Shown: positions 1 to 3,950 of the stretch, one piece after another
How positions within the stretch are numbered: the first letter of the stretch is position 1
Layout of the letters: every line of letters starts with the position of its first letter
Source of the DNA: a virus
Lineage: Duplodnaviria; Heunggongvirae; Uroviricota; Caudoviricetes
Reading direction: 5' to 3' (one strand)
DNA: 3,950 nt
Virus record (IMG/VR): IMGVR_UViG_2671180755_000021
Program-made: the position numbers and the translations under genes
The notes under the pieces: model-generated
Seen by the model: only the letters and a program-made list of their open reading frames with translations
Databases searched by the model: none
Told to the model about the DNA's origin: nothing

Positions 1-1119
1 TCAAATAACCAACTTAACCCATTCCTGACCTCGAGTATCGTTATAGCGATCGGTGGTTGCCTGGACTTTATGTCCTAGTAATGTTTTTGTATCGATACCC
101 TGTGCACGGTACAGCCGTTCTGATAGAGAGCGTTGTTCATGAAATGTTGGCGGAGTTTTTCCTGCTGGTGGAATTACCCCAGCCAGATCCCGTGCTTTGG
201 CAAAGTAGTCGCTCAGGTTGTCTTTACTCATCGGCTTCGGTTGTTTCTGGTGCCGACTATGGATTAGATATGGACTTAATATTCTGTCTCGGCACCCATC
301 AATAACTTCTTTTAACGTTATCCCAATGGCATCACAGCGTAGTGTAAGCGGTAACGCCAGACGCATTCCGGTTTTTCCCTGGGTGATATGCAAGTGTTCG
401 TTCCACACATCTGAAAAACGCATGTGGCAAATGTCATCACGGCGCTGACCAGTAACAATCGCAAGAAGCATTGCGTTACGGATAAAGTGTTTTTCAGGCG
501 TTGCATTGTAAATTTTTTGCCAGTCTTCCATGGTGAGCCTGGCTCTGGTTACTTTAGGGATCGGTTTACGGGTAGCCTCCGGAGGATTCCATCCAGGAGG
601 AACTTCCCCTGCATGCTGTGCTTCTTTATAAATATCAACCCATAATCCACGATTTACTCTCGCTGTACTGACCATGTCTTTATCCAGCCACTCATCCAGT
701 ATTAATGCAAAGTCTCTTACTTCCAGTTCTTTCAATGGGTGGTTTCCCAGACGGGAAACCAGGTATGCAGCCATTCGAGTTTTTTCTTTGTGAGTTGTAG
801 CTGCAATATCTCCATTTTTCAGTCGCGTGTCCTGTATTTTCAGATATCGATCAACCCATGCCTTTAATCTGATACCCCGACGTTTTGTTGCTGACGGACT
901 TTCATCAATTTTGCGCATGAAATATTCAGCTTCTGCTGCAGCTATTCGCTGATTGGCTGTGGAAGCGATTTTTTCTGCCTTACCTTTGTCTGTTCCGAGT
1001 CCGTGAAATTTTCCAGTCACAGGATTTTTATACTGGTAGTAAACTCTGCCAGTTCTGCGATCAAACTTTTCGTAAAGACCGGCTACGTCAGTGCTGTTTT
1101 TTCGTGGCCTCGGTGACAT
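1..1119 (-). CDS. int: Lambda-family phage integrase (tyrosine recombinase), complete, 372 aa
   Basis: Uninterrupted 372-codon minus-strand ORF, ATG at 1117-1119, TGA at 1-3. C-terminal half shows the lambda Int catalytic motifs by eye: TGQRRDD (Arg), QGKTG (Lys), TFHEQRSLSERLY (His-x-x-Arg), LLGHK (His), TDRYND (Tyr). N-terminus (YYQYKNPVTGKFHGLGTDK) resembles the lambda Int arm-binding region. Confidence 0.9.
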   Translation of the reverse strand: MSPRPRKNSTDVAGLYEKFDRRTGRVYYQYKNPVTGKFHGLGTDKGKAEKIASTANQRIAAAEAEYFMRKIDESPSATKRRGIRLKAWVDRYLKIQDTRLKNGDIAATTHKEKTRMAAYLVSRLGNHPLKELEVRDFALILDEWLDKDMVSTARVNRGLWVDIYKEAQHAGEVPPGWNPPEATRKPIPKVTRARLTMEDWQKIYNATPEKHFIRNAMLLAIVTGQRRDDICHMRFSDVWNEHLHITQGKTGMRLALPLTLRCDAIGITLKEVIDGCRDRILSPYLIHSRHQKQPKPMSKDNLSDYFAKARDLAGVIPPAGKTPPTFHEQRSLSERLYRAQGIDTKTLLGHKVQATTDRYNDTRGQEWVKLVI

Positions 1120-1357
1120 GAGTTAAAATCTCCTTCAGTGCATCATCATCGCCAGTATGAATTTCCGGCGCAATTCCCGTTTCACCAGGCCCAACAAATA
1201 CTGCTCGGCGATCTATCAGCCAACGCCCACGAATTTTTTGTGGTCTTGGAACGATGTATCCTAGTTTTCCGTATTTCACCAGGGTAGTGTTTGTTATTGG
1301 GAGACTGAACCGTTTTGGTTTCCACTCGTCGAGCGTTATCAGGTACTGTTCGCTCAT
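1088..1357 (-). CDS. xis: Excisionase (Xis-like), 89 aa
   Basis: Small minus-strand ORF directly upstream of int, 3-prime end overlapping the int start by 32 nt. N-terminus MSEQYLITLDEW resembles lambda Xis MYLTLQEW. GGAG lies 8 nt upstream of the ATG at 1355-1357. The ORF track's GTG start at 1364-1366 has no Shine-Dalgarno and is less likely. Confidence 0.75.
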   Translation of the reverse strand: MSEQYLITLDEWKPKRFSLPITNTTLVKYGKLGYIVPRPQKIRGRWLIDRRAVFVGPGETGIAPEIHTGDDDALKEILTHVTEATKKQH

Positions 1358-1375
1358 GGCTATCACTCCGGAACG

Positions 1376-1728: not shown

Positions 1729-2244
1729 GTGATCGCTGAATTAACGGCAGCAATGACGGCTATTCGTGAAACCGCCCAGATTGCAAAACTAATGAACGAG
1801 GCAAAAACTCAAGCTGAAGTAAATGCGGCTATTGGTGAACTGAACTCAAAGCTTGCATCTATTCAGCGCGAATGCGTGTCTCTCGTTGAGCTGGTGGGCA
1901 CTTATCAAGAAATAAATGCTTCTCTCAAAGCTAAAATTGCAGAATTTGAAAACTTTGAGGCTCAGACGGAAGGTTATATCCTTAGCCAACTTGAGTCGGG
2001 AACTTTTGTGTACTCGAAGGAGGTAACCGTGAACGGCGGCAGCATAATCATGCATCTTTGTCCAAAATGTTTTGGACAAAAGATAGTATCGATACTTCAG
2101 CCATTCCCGGTTAGAGAATATGAATTTTTTCATAAAAGCAGGTGCCTGTACTGTGAAAATCAGTTTCTTATGAATAAAAATCCGGATTACGTATCACCTC
2201 CATCTATTGAAGAGTTGGCCAGAAAACTGAACGGCAATCTGTAG
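1729..2244 (+). CDS. Hypothetical protein: N-terminal coiled-coil plus C-terminal C-x2-C-x24-C-x2-C zinc ribbon (171 aa from GTG 1729, or 163 aa from ATG 1753)
   Basis: Long plus-strand ORF ending at TAG 2242-2244. N-terminal ~90 aa is alanine/glutamate/lysine-rich and heptad-like (TAIRETAQIAKLMNEAKTQAEVNAAIGELNSKLASIQRE...). C-terminal part carries CPKC and CLYC 24 residues apart. AAGAG lies 8 nt upstream of GTG 1729. The track's extension back to GTG 1612 translates to R/P/C-rich low-complexity text and is probably non-coding. Not recognised as any named family. Confidence 0.65.
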   Translation: MIAELTAAMTAIRETAQIAKLMNEAKTQAEVNAAIGELNSKLASIQRECVSLVELVGTYQEINASLKAKIAEFENFEAQTEGYILSQLESGTFVYSKEVTVNGGSIIMHLCPKCFGQKIVSILQPFPVREYEFFHKSRCLYCENQFLMNKNPDYVSPPSIEELARKLNGNL

Positions 2245-2358
2245 ATTTTTACTGTTATGGATATCCAGATTGTTAAAGAGCATGCCGGATGCTTGCTTGT
2301 GTCCGGCGCGTGTGCACCACTCTCCCCCCGTGGAGGATTCCTTAATTACCAGATTTCA

Positions 2359-2589
2359 TTAGTCAGAGTTTCTTGCTAACCAGCGACGCGCGCCAGATTC
2401 GGTTTTAAACGTTTTGCTTTTGGTATACGTCATCGCGGTGAACGTGCCGTCCTGGTTGGGAAACACGCCGCACACCAGAGATTCGTTGTTGCCAAGATCA
2501 AGAGTATCCATGCTGACCTCATATCCCCTTAACGCCGGGGTAGCGGAACAAAAACCTGCTGCATAGTTAAAGTTGAACCCTGCCGTCAT
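2359..2589 (-). CDS. Hypothetical small protein (76 aa), first gene downstream of the PL-like promoter
   Basis: Minus-strand ORF, ATG at 2587-2589, TAA at 2359-2361, with GAGG 9 nt upstream of the ATG. About 95 nt downstream of the predicted leftward promoter at 2690-2718. No recognisable motif. Confidence 0.6.
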   Translation of the reverse strand: MTAGFNFNYAAGFCSATPALRGYEVSMDTLDLGNNESLVCGVFPNQDGTFTAMTYTKSKTFKTESGARRWLARNSD

Positions 2590-2689
2590 GTTCTTACGCC
2601 TCGGGCTGGCTACTTAATCCCTGACCACTGCCGGGTAACTCTAGGTATTGCCCTGTATTGTGTGGGACGGGATGGGTTGGTATGGGAAA

Positions 2690-2718
2690 ACTATAGGAAA
2701 TGCCTAATTGCTTGTCAA
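2690..2718 (-). promoter_or_regulatory. PL-like leftward sigma-70 promoter, TTGACA-17-TATAGT
   Basis: On the minus strand: -35 TTGACA (plus coords 2713-2718), 17-nt spacer, -10 TATAGT (plus coords 2690-2695). Faces the 76-aa gene and is overlapped by operator-like sites. Confidence 0.6.
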
Positions 2719-2731
2719 TAGGCTACGCCTA
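2694..2731. promoter_or_regulatory. Left operator cluster (OL-like): two TAGGC-N3-GCCTA-type sites
   Basis: TAGGAAATGCCTA at 2694-2706 (one mismatch; overlaps spacer and -10) and TAGGCTACGCCTA at 2719-2731 (perfect; abuts the -35). Same half-sites as the cluster between racR and ydaS. A weaker relative TAGGTATTGCCCT lies at 2642-2654. Confidence 0.55.
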
Positions 2732-2790
2732 ATGATTTGGGTGCGACCTAATAGGTGATGGTTTGTGGGAGAGGTAGTAGGAGTTAACTA

Positions 2791-2812
2791 ACGGGAACTA
2801 GGAATTTCCCGT
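2791..2812 (-). terminator. Possible weak terminator hairpin just downstream of the racR-like stop
   Basis: ACGGGAA (2791-2797), 8-nt loop, TTCCCGT (2806-2812): 7-bp perfect stem, 15 nt past the repressor stop. No clean U-tract follows on the minus strand, so an intrinsic-terminator call is weak. Confidence 0.2.
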
Positions 2813-2826
2813 CGGACCATATAAGT

Positions 2827-3303
2827 TTAAGTTCCTGTCTTGGTGATGTTCTGGCTTTTCCGTTTTGATTCTTGATTTTTCAGATAGTTAGCTACCTTCA
2901 TTTCCATTGCGGCAATGTAGGCACGAACGTCATGATCAACCCAACTAGGCTCCGTAGCATTTCCAGATAAGAGGAAAGCCACAATTGCTCTTTTTTCATC
3001 AGAGGCGGCTTGATAAAGGCTGTTTATGTCTAAAAGTTCACTTTTTGTATCTGAAGTGGATGGGGTTGGTATGGGGTATTCGTTAAGCCCCCAATGCTCT
3101 GGACCAACCACATCAGAAAAGAAACGCCATAGTTCTGGAAGTTTGTCTTTACTTATCGAACCTTTCTTAATCCAGTCATGGATTGATGGTGGTTGGACTT
3201 TGAAATGACGTGCGATTTCCGCCTTTGATTTGACGGCTCCTGATGCAATTTTTTTGTTAATGGCCTGCTCTATCGCTCGGCCTAAGTCTTTACCACTAAG
3301 CAT
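2827..3303 (-). CDS. racR: RacR-like prophage repressor (HTH DNA-binding protein), 158 aa
   Basis: Minus-strand ORF, ATG 3301-3303, TAA 2827-2829, AGGAGA about 11 nt upstream. N-terminal HTH-like segment (SKAEIARHFKVQPPSIHDWIKKGSISKDKLPELW). Divergent from a YdaS/YdaT-like pair, matching the racR-ydaS-ydaT organisation and the 158-aa length I recall for E. coli K-12 RacR. Symbol assigned from memory of that organisation, not from a search. Confidence 0.8.
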   Translation of the reverse strand: MLSGKDLGRAIEQAINKKIASGAVKSKAEIARHFKVQPPSIHDWIKKGSISKDKLPELWRFFSDVVGPEHWGLNEYPIPTPSTSDTKSELLDINSLYQAASDEKRAIVAFLLSGNATEPSWVDHDVRAYIAAMEMKVANYLKNQESKRKSQNITKTGT

Positions 3304-3332
3304 TGCTTAATAGTCTCCTATGCGCATCGCAT

Positions 3333-3396
3333 TAGGCAATACCTACTCTCGAAGCGTTAGGCATAGCCTATTGACAATTGCATTAGGCTAAGCCTA
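3333..3396. promoter_or_regulatory. Right operator cluster (OR-like): three TAGGC-N3-GCCTA-type sites at 25-26 bp spacing
   Basis: O1 TAGGCAATACCTA 3333-3345 (one mismatch), O2 TAGGCATAGCCTA 3358-3370 (perfect), O3 TAGGCTAAGCCTA 3384-3396 (perfect). O3 sits inside the 17-bp palindrome ATTAGGCTAAGCCTAAT (3382-3398). Confidence 0.6.
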
Positions 3397-3400
3397 ATAT
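3371..3400 (+). promoter_or_regulatory. PR-like rightward sigma-70 promoter, TTGACA-18-TAATAT, for ydaS-ydaT
   Basis: -35 TTGACA at 3371-3376, 18-nt spacer, -10 TAATAT at 3395-3400. O2 abuts the -35 and O3 overlaps the spacer and -10. The ydaS start is about 28 nt downstream. Confidence 0.6.
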
Positions 3401-3427
3401 TATTGTGTGTTTTTTGGAGTTCATTCG

Positions 3428-3751
3428 ATGAAAAAAGATAACTATTCATTCAAACGAGCTTGTGCTGTTGTCGGTGGGCAATCAGCAATGGCTAGGCTTT
3501 TAGGTGTATCTCCTCCAAGCGTAAATCAATGGATCAAAGGTGTACGTCAGTTGCCTGCTGAGAGATGTCCTGCGATTGAACGAGCAACAAAAGGTGGTGT
3601 CCTGTGTGAAGAACTTCGTCCTGATGTTGATTGGACATACTTACGACGCTCGTCATGTTATTCGCAGAATATGTCGATGAAGCAACCAAATGACGAAAAC
3701 GATCATACCCGAAGCATCAAGAGGCAAATGATTCATGAAAATCAAACATGA
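3428..3751 (+). CDS. ydaS: YdaS-like Cro-type HTH protein, 107 aa
   Basis: ATG at 3428 with GGAG 8 nt upstream; TGA at 3749-3751. Segment SAMARLLGVSPPSVNQWIKGVRQLPAERCPAIE matches the Cro/YdaS-type HTH pattern as I recall it. The track's GTG start at 3407 has no ribosome-binding site and is unlikely. Confidence 0.8.
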   Translation: MKKDNYSFKRACAVVGGQSAMARLLGVSPPSVNQWIKGVRQLPAERCPAIERATKGGVLCEELRPDVDWTYLRRSSCYSQNMSMKQPNDENDHTRSIKRQMIHENQT

Positions 3752-3950
3752 GCACATCCGCATGGCGATGAATGCCTGGGCATATCCTGATGGTGAGAAA
3801 GTTCCTGCAGCTGAAATAGCCCGGACTTATTTCGAACTGGGGATGACGTTCCCGGAACTGTACGACGACAGCCATCCGGAAGCCCTGGCTCGTAATACCC
3901 AGAAAATTTTCCGTTGGCTGGATAAAGACACCCCTGATGCTGTTGAAAAA
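3735..3950 (+). CDS. ydaT: YdaT-like protein, 5-prime partial (first 72 codons; runs off window end)
   Basis: ATG at 3735-3737 opens a frame with no stop through 3950 (MKIKHEHIRMAMNAWAYPDGEKVPAAEIARTYFELGMTFPELYDDSHPEALARNTQKIFRWLDKDTPDAVEK). Overlaps the ydaS 3-prime end by 17 nt. MKIKHEH matches my recollection of the K-12 YdaT N-terminus. Absent from the ORF track because it is open-ended. Confidence 0.65.
   Translation, partial: MKIKHEHIRMAMNAWAYPDGEKVPAAEIARTYFELGMTFPELYDDSHPEALARNTQKIFRWLDKDTPDAVEK

Follow-up and report, generated by a model that had tools for sequence, protein, structure and literature searches.

The analysed window, a stretch of 3,950 nucleotides of viral DNA, very probably carries the immunity switch of a Rac-type lambdoid prophage, in which the RacR repressor would act on two operator regions flanking its own gene: a set of dyads between racR and the divergent ydaS gene, corresponding to the lambda OR, and a mirror-image set with a leftward promoter beyond racR, corresponding to OL/PL. 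The operator motif TAGGC-N3-GCCTA, the promoter PydaS and the lambda analogy are all already published for the Rac prophage of E. coli K-12, of which the window is another allele. The first-pass annotation of this DNA, which had proposed an operator with this consensus overlapping a rightward promoter, was correct, but its finding is already known, because the operators, the promoter and the analogy have been published for K-12 Rac with binding, footprint and reporter data. The putative OL/PL equivalent is the sole part that may add something.

Prophage context and gene content

Over positions 2200-3950 the window matches many E. coli O157:H7 chromosomes with 100% identity, and in them the repressor is annotated as racR. 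The window is part of a lambdoid prophage that in E. coli O157:H7 sits between potC and potB. In strain 10671 the prophage in the potC-potB interval is about 48 kb long and carries nleL, espN and espK as cargo. From left to right the window contains genes for a lambda-type integrase (1-1119, minus strand) and an excisionase (1088-1366, minus strand), a run of 125 N (1452-1576), a 171 amino acid ORF (1729-2244, plus strand), a DUF1391 gene (2359-2511/2589, minus strand), racR (2827-3303, minus strand), the ydaS-like gene (3428-3751, plus strand) and the start of a YdaT-family gene (from 3735, plus strand). The leftward arm is strongly deleted in the O157 prophage, where the DUF1391 gene, an exonuclease pseudogene, xis and int are all that remain. 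The run of N replaces 337 bp of strain 10671 (L001 5041-5377) within the truncated 3'-5' exonuclease pseudogene, and since the two stretches differ in length, the offset between window and reference changes across it.

The ydaS-like gene encodes a Cro-type HTH protein, 85% identical to K-12 YdaS, which matches the Pfam families YdaS_toxin (3.8e-30) and P22_Cro; the truncated downstream ORF matches YdaT_toxin. At 107 amino acids, against 98 in K-12, ydaS overlaps the start of ydaT by 17 nt (3735-3751), owing to a 12-nt deletion near the ydaS 3' end. The YdaT-box ATGATTCATGAAAATCAA (3728-3745, plus strand) straddles this overlap, has the ydaT ATG (3735) in its spacer and is the same sequence as the box footprinted in K-12 by the Mruk laboratory (NAR 2025; PMC11879457). 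A divergent operon of Cro-like ydaS and CII-like ydaT with a YdaT-box at the ydaT start, as expected of a RacR-type immunity region, is therefore present.

The RacR protein

Judged by its sequence, the repressor is a RacR orthologue: it is 92% identical to K-12 RacR over 158 amino acids and matches the NCBIfam equivalog NF049929 with 246.8 bits against a cut-off of 200. This equivalog is its only match, as neither a Pfam nor a PHROGs family was found for the 158 amino acid protein and a PDB sequence search gave no relative. Its predicted recognition helix reads PPSIHDWIKK and carries H42, the majority residue in the family, in place of the Y42 of K-12. Pfam detects in RacR neither the S24 autopeptidase domain of LexA/CI-type repressors nor an HTH_3 or CI-family match that would speak for homology to lambda CI, and for the N-terminal domain only a predicted fold similarity to CI has been reported (PMC11014345).

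Lacking an S24 domain, the 158 amino acid RacR of E. coli probably does not undergo inactivation by RecA-stimulated self-cleavage. Two antirepressor-type proteins are encoded in the same prophage (L098 7732-8301 and 24968-26623), one with a phage antirepressor N-terminal domain and the other an Ant protein accompanied by Arc-family regulators, and both are candidate inducers for a repressor of this kind. In Achromobacter-type relatives (L131 3195-4295; also L014, L016, L137, L154, L156 and L171) the RacR-type N-terminal domain is fused to a C-terminal Peptidase_S24 domain (LexA/CI-like), and both the operators and the layout of three OR and two OL dyads are unchanged.

Operators and promoters between racR and ydaS

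Three 13-bp dyads lie in the racR-ydaS intergenic region, where the first-pass annotation had placed them: TAGGCAATACCTA at 3333-3345, with one mismatch to the consensus, TAGGCATAGCCTA at 3358-3370, perfect, and the promoter-proximal TAGGCTAAGCCTA at 3384-3396, also perfect. Their start-to-start distances are 25 and 26 bp. The description of this operator as tripartite holds for these three dyads but not for the region, which has four; the fourth is the weak dyad TAAGCATTGCTTA (3297-3309), with two mismatches and the racR ATG in its N3 spacer, whose K-12 counterpart has been described (PMC9638921). A form with one mismatch, TAGGCAATGCTTA, is found at this place in other genera. The invariance of the fourth dyad is ambiguous because the dyad is partly coding, and may reflect the Met-Leu-Ser codons. 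All four dyads align column for column with the K-12 sites; as to numbering, dyad 3384 (O3 of the first-pass annotation) is the published O1, and dyad 3297 is the published O3.

The PR equivalent, PydaS (3371-3400, plus strand), is composed of a TTGACA -35 (3371-3376), an 18-nt spacer and a TAATAT -10 (3395-3400), and agrees with the consensus at 10 of 12 positions. Dyad 3358 directly abuts the -35, and dyad 3384 covers the spacer and shares its last two bases with the first two of the -10, so that the promoter is embedded in the operators just as the first-pass annotation had it. Between 2200 and 3950 there are two promoter-like sites only: PydaS and a leftward promoter described below.

With up to two mismatches allowed, the window contains six matches to TAGGC-N3-GCCTA, a number reached by none of 200 shuffles, where 0.94 are expected; all six sites flank racR. 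A scan for further sites, which the first-pass annotation had suggested, found dyads with at most one mismatch at the two racR flanks alone in about 60 kb of prophage and flanking DNA (13.7 kb around the locus and a further 49 kb holding the rest of the prophage). The same holds for K-12, where 35 kb spanning Rac contained no such dyad apart from the racR flanks.

For racR itself the first-pass annotation had seen no convincing leftward -10 and had suggested a weak or activated PRM-like promoter. In K-12, racR has three weak promoters, PracR1-3, of which PracR3 (-10 GAGAAT) is the main one and gives a leaderless transcript (PMC9638921). A counterpart of the PracR3 -10 is in fact present by homology, namely GAGACT at 3317-3312 (3312-3317, minus strand), one step weaker than the K-12 hexamer, and the -35, TTGCCT (3339-3334, minus strand), lies inside dyad 3333 as mapped in K-12 (PMC9638921). 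The K-12 PracR2 -10 (AGTAAG), which falls in a variable linker, is absent from the O157 allele in the alignment to K-12. An auxiliary reverse promoter activated by YdaT, PracR4, lies inside ydaS in K-12 (PMC11879457); the homologue of this PRE-like promoter is found at 3518-3550 (minus strand), with the -10 TACGCT kept and the -35 CTGACG in place of K-12 TTGACG. The surmise of a weak promoter, with an activated one as auxiliary, thus agrees with K-12, but RacR does not activate its own gene there: it represses it about 3-fold. Given the position of the PracR3 -35 inside dyad 3333, RacR at this site should likewise repress and not activate.

Experimental evidence from the K-12 allele

In the K-12 prophage, Krishnamurthi et al. 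(2017) described, in the 123 bp between racR and ydaS, three variant GCCTAA/TTAGGC repeats, which they compared to the lambda OR; in EMSA, RacR gave three complexes with the racR-ydaS region and one with a single-repeat fragment (PMC5700373). The Mruk laboratory (NAR 2022; PMC9638921) mapped PydaS, with -35 TTGACA and -10 TAATAT, by primer extension and abolished it by replacing the -10; the promoter was again mapped and mutated in later work (PMC11879457). DNase I footprints covered the repeats, the PydaS region being protected at the lowest RacR concentration, and led to a monomer site ATTAGGC and an operator (T/A)TAGGC-n3-GCCTA(T/A), with one operator over the racR ATG (PMC9638921). RacR nearly silences ydaST and shows the mild autorepression given above (PMC9638921). 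A subsequent paper (NAR 2023; PMC11014345) counted four inverted repeats and found RacR to be an octamer by size-exclusion chromatography, a result explained there by four dimers bound to the four dyads of the intergenic region.

Over positions 2600-3450 the two alleles are about 87% identical, and the roughly 13% nucleotide divergence falls mostly in the N3 spacers and linkers. The half-sites, the TTGACA/TAATAT hexamers with their 18-nt spacer, the dyad over the racR ATG, the ydaS-ydaT order downstream and the YdaT-box are shared. Binding, footprints, promoter mapping, repression, autorepression and octamer formation all come from the K-12 allele. RacR can be expected to bind the O157 dyads, because the half-sites are identical and the DNA-binding domain is near-identical to that of K-12, and the O157 allele presumably behaves in the same way throughout. 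The proposal of a lambda OR logic with a different recognition sequence is thereby supported, having been established experimentally on the K-12 locus.

A putative second operator and promoter unit downstream of racR

Beyond the 3' end of racR two further dyads flank and overlap a predicted leftward promoter. The perfect dyad TAGGCTACGCCTA (2719-2731) abuts the -35, and TAGGAAATGCCTA (2694-2706, one mismatch) lies over the spacer and the first two nucleotides of the -10; the PL-like promoter (2690-2718, minus strand) consists of TTGACA (2718-2713), a spacer of 17 nt and TATAGT (2695-2690), with 11 of 12 positions matching the consensus. The dyads are 25 bp apart, in the same geometry as at PydaS, and the two promoter-operator units around racR form a 26-nt inverted repeat, 88% complementary. 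The promoter reads toward the DUF1391 gene, xis and int; with the reduced leftward arm of the O157 prophage, the excision functions are about 1.3 kb away. By its sequence the unit repeats the layout of lambda, where a leftward early promoter past the repressor gene carries a further operator. We read positions 2690-2731, which lie outside the region covered by the first-pass annotation and were missed by it, as the OL/PL equivalent, and RacR would be expected to repress PL. This element is not mentioned in the papers on RacR that we found, and a search for work on sbcA, on recE and on a PL promoter of Rac yielded nothing relevant; an earlier description may exist, so no priority is claimed.

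Two more candidates were rejected as operators. The sequence CCTAATAGG (2747-2755), considered as a third OL dyad, has its half-sites swapped (ACCTA-A-TAGGT) around a 1-nt gap and misfits the operator model; it is centred 26 bp from dyad 2719 and is invariant except for one base in one of 34 alleles. The candidate left half-site TGGGT (2738-2742) and its K-12 version TGAGC each have two mismatches in five to TAGGC and differ between alleles. TAGGTATTGCCCT at 2642, 52 bp from dyad 2694, has three mismatches and was excluded from the count.

Two other features of this region may be recorded. A conserved hairpin of 7 bp is found 14 nt past the racR stop (2790-2813, minus strand); it has no U tail and shows one compensatory change in K-12 (GGGAA/UCCC to GGAAA/UUCC). 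Situated between racR and PL, it may act as a 3'-end or stability element of racR. A direct repeat of 13 nt without mismatches, GGGTTGGTATGGG, is present at the predicted PL start (2674-2686) and within racR (3063-3075, in the linker codons for PIPTP), and is probably due to chance because it is not conserved in K-12.

Conservation of both operator regions

The intergenic region was compared in 40 unique racR-ydaS alleles, taken from E. coli genomes, one sequenced phage and IMG/VR contigs. Three of the 30 half-site columns vary, as against 22 of the 28 columns in spacers and linkers (Fisher 1.4e-7), the latter made up of 6 of 9 in the N3 spacers and 16 of 19 in the linkers. The PydaS -10 never varies in these alleles, and the -35 varies in one column. 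The OL region behaves in the same way: across 34 unique alleles one of 20 half-site columns is variable compared to 16 of 27 in the adjacent spacers (Fisher 1.4e-4), and the PL-like hexamers are essentially fixed. These figures bear on the possibility that the intergenic dyads alone are functional and that the 2694/2719 pair with its hexamers is a decaying remnant in a truncated prophage. The heavy deletion of the leftward arm in O157 would agree with such decay, but half-sites and both hexamers have stayed near-invariant while neighbouring bases vary, the OL architecture recurs in Mixta, in Proteus and in most viral loci (see below) at OR-OL distances of 0.56-2.6 kb, and the leftward genes of K-12 rise 40-100-fold on RacR depletion (PMC6765115, PMC11014345). 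We consider a remnant unlikely.

More distant relatives, at 58-78% protein identity, were found in genomes of Mixta, Proteus, Klebsiella and Achromobacter and in metagenome bins labelled Pseudomonadota and Nitrosomonas. In these, TAGGC-N3-GCCTA dyads are kept at approximate positions -66, -41 and -6 relative to the repressor start; TTGAC abuts the middle one, the distal one contains TAATAT and the spacer of the third holds the ATG, and the predicted recognition helix PPSI[H/Y]DWIKKGSISKDKLP is near-invariant. The OL arrangement is kept in Mixta, in Proteus and in one Pseudomonadota metagenome bin.

A scan of viral contigs for a perfect extended dyad returned mostly RacR-type loci, the first 80 including 60 with a RacR-type helix. 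Among 83 unique RacR-type viral loci, 82 have the three OR dyads with at most one mismatch and 76 have the OL pair, counts that are somewhat inflated since the loci were retrieved through at least one perfect extended dyad; of the seven without an OL pair, three have less than 450 bp of sequence on that side. The OL pair is followed by TTGACA in 66 of the 76 loci that have it and by TTGACN in 75, and its second dyad contains the start of a -10-like hexamer.

Some loci deserve separate mention. An Aeromonas metagenome contig (L017 1350-1515) is an exception to the family pattern, as it encodes a RacR-type helix and has upstream no dyad with at most one mismatch, only scattered TAGGC/GCCTA half-sites. 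A 5.2-kb contig binned as 'Candidatus Nanosynbacter' (L008, JARKOR010000130.1) carries a K-12-type racR locus, with a RacR 92% identical to that of the window, as is K-12 RacR, and most likely entered the metagenome bin as contaminating E. coli DNA. In loci with OR and OL 1.2-2.6 kb apart (L103 7500-8669; L131 4322-5620), cargo genes occupy the interval from the repressor gene to OL, where lambda has rexAB; one of them encodes a protein of 389 amino acids whose N-terminal domain is that of a type I restriction HsdR. PADLOC gave no match for this HsdR-type protein, for a 174 amino acid zinc-ribbon ORF (L131 5096-5620) or for two small leftward-arm proteins.

Across alleles and genera, the comparison gives strong evidence for recognition of the dyads by the N-terminal domain of the RacR repressor family. 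A different assignment, in which the dyads are mainly operators of the Cro-like YdaS (or of YdaT) and RacR acts elsewhere or indirectly, has several facts behind it: YdaS is a Cro-family HTH protein, K-12 YdaS autorepresses PydaS and ydaS inactivation raises PydaST 16-fold, the YdaT footprint spans 100 bp (-60 to +40) around the ydaS ATG and overlaps PydaS (PMC11879457), and in lambda the repressor and Cro use the same sites. Against it, purified RacR alone shifts and footprints the K-12 repeats (PMC5700373, PMC9638921), the occurrence of the dyads goes with that of the RacR-type recognition helix in different genera, in one case with a repressor whose C-terminal domain is another, and the recognition sequence of YdaT is a different one (ATGATT-N6-AATCAA). 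This assignment is accordingly held to be quite improbable, and sharing of the dyads by YdaS would complement RacR binding rather than replace it. As for the palindromes being RNA or DNA hairpins, a terminator scan did flag 3382-3398 (7-bp stem, 3-nt loop, T-rich tail), but this segment lies upstream of the mapped PydaS start and is not transcribed rightward, its leftward strand has no T tail, one terminator-like match is below the shuffle mean of 1.4, Rfam finds nothing in the whole window at E<=1, half-site changes are uncompensated (ACCTA, CCCTA, GCCTA) and all six dyads have one common sequence beyond mere self-complementarity, so that a terminator is ruled out by position, strand and conservation of sequence and not structure, and hairpins in general have next to no probability as an explanation.

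Proposed mechanism

With RacR as the reader of the dyads, its dimers would bind the 13-bp TAGGC-N3-GCCTA sites through the N-terminal helix-turn-helix domain. At dyad 3384, over the -10 and spacer, and at dyad 3358, flanking the -35, RacR would occlude the very strong PydaS and keep it off. At dyads 3333 and 3297, placed over the -35 and the start site of the weak, leaderless promoter of racR, its binding would result in mild negative autoregulation. Bound to dyads 2719 and 2694, RacR would occlude the near-consensus PL equivalent, which is predicted to drive the early genes of the leftward arm as far as xis and int.

The K-12 data on the leftward genes are consistent with this last step. When RacR falls, ydaG, ydaF, kilR, ydaE, racC, recET and int/xis rise (PMC6765115; 2026 bioRxiv preprint), and xisR and intR are derepressed 100-fold (PMC11014345); from ydaG to intR all genes of K-12 Rac are on the leftward strand, sieB excepted. 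Repression of PL would be the simplest account of the control of excision by RacR, because the leftward genes rise 40-100-fold and Rac has no other dyad.

It is possible, though doubtful, that all of the following hold together: that OR and OL form a conserved two-part system, that the RacR octamer bridges them by a DNA loop of about 0.6 kb, and that PL derepression directly causes the rise from ydaG to intR and excision. Reasoning from the layout alone, an octamer bridging OL and OR as in lambda would be as natural a reading as four dimers on the intergenic dyads. OL-OR distances are 614-641 bp in different relatives, within a family range of 556-2567 bp, and show no constant helical phase, which neither supports nor opposes looping.

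Comparison with lambda and CP-933P

The locus shares with lambda the divergent repressor and cro genes with a multi-dyad operator between them that overlaps both promoters (the racR promoter being placed by homology), the spacing of the dyads at about 25 bp centre to centre, the strong rightward and weak leaderless leftward promoters under the operators, and the second operator on the leftward early promoter. A CII-like activator, YdaT, drives a reverse promoter in the cro-like gene, and the repressor oligomerises, an octamer having been reported. The differences are equally clear. RacR has no detectable homology to CI and no S24 domain, and the core of its operator is the 13-bp TAGGC-N3-GCCTA; the RacR system has four OR and two OL dyads, compared to three and three in lambda, and OL and OR are about 0.64 kb apart here and 2.4 kb in lambda. 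RacR is reported to autorepress and not to activate, and YdaS, unlike lambda Cro, is reported not to repress racR (PMC9638921).

The PaaR2/YdaS/YdaT switch of CP-933P (PMC8630535, PMC9986795) also comes from E. coli O157:H7, has the same cro-like and cII-like families downstream and, as summarised in PMC9638921, an intergenic operator region with four inverted repeats, a likeness drawn from that description. It differs in its repressor, PaaR2, and in an extra toxin-antitoxin module under the control of PaaR2.

Significance

The practical value of these results is in annotation: the O157:H7 prophage carrying the effector genes nleL, espN and espK is almost certainly homoimmune with K-12 Rac. 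A conserved OL/PL would further provide a simple mechanism for the control of the leftward operon and of excision by RacR, and may give the RacR octamer an alternative meaning.
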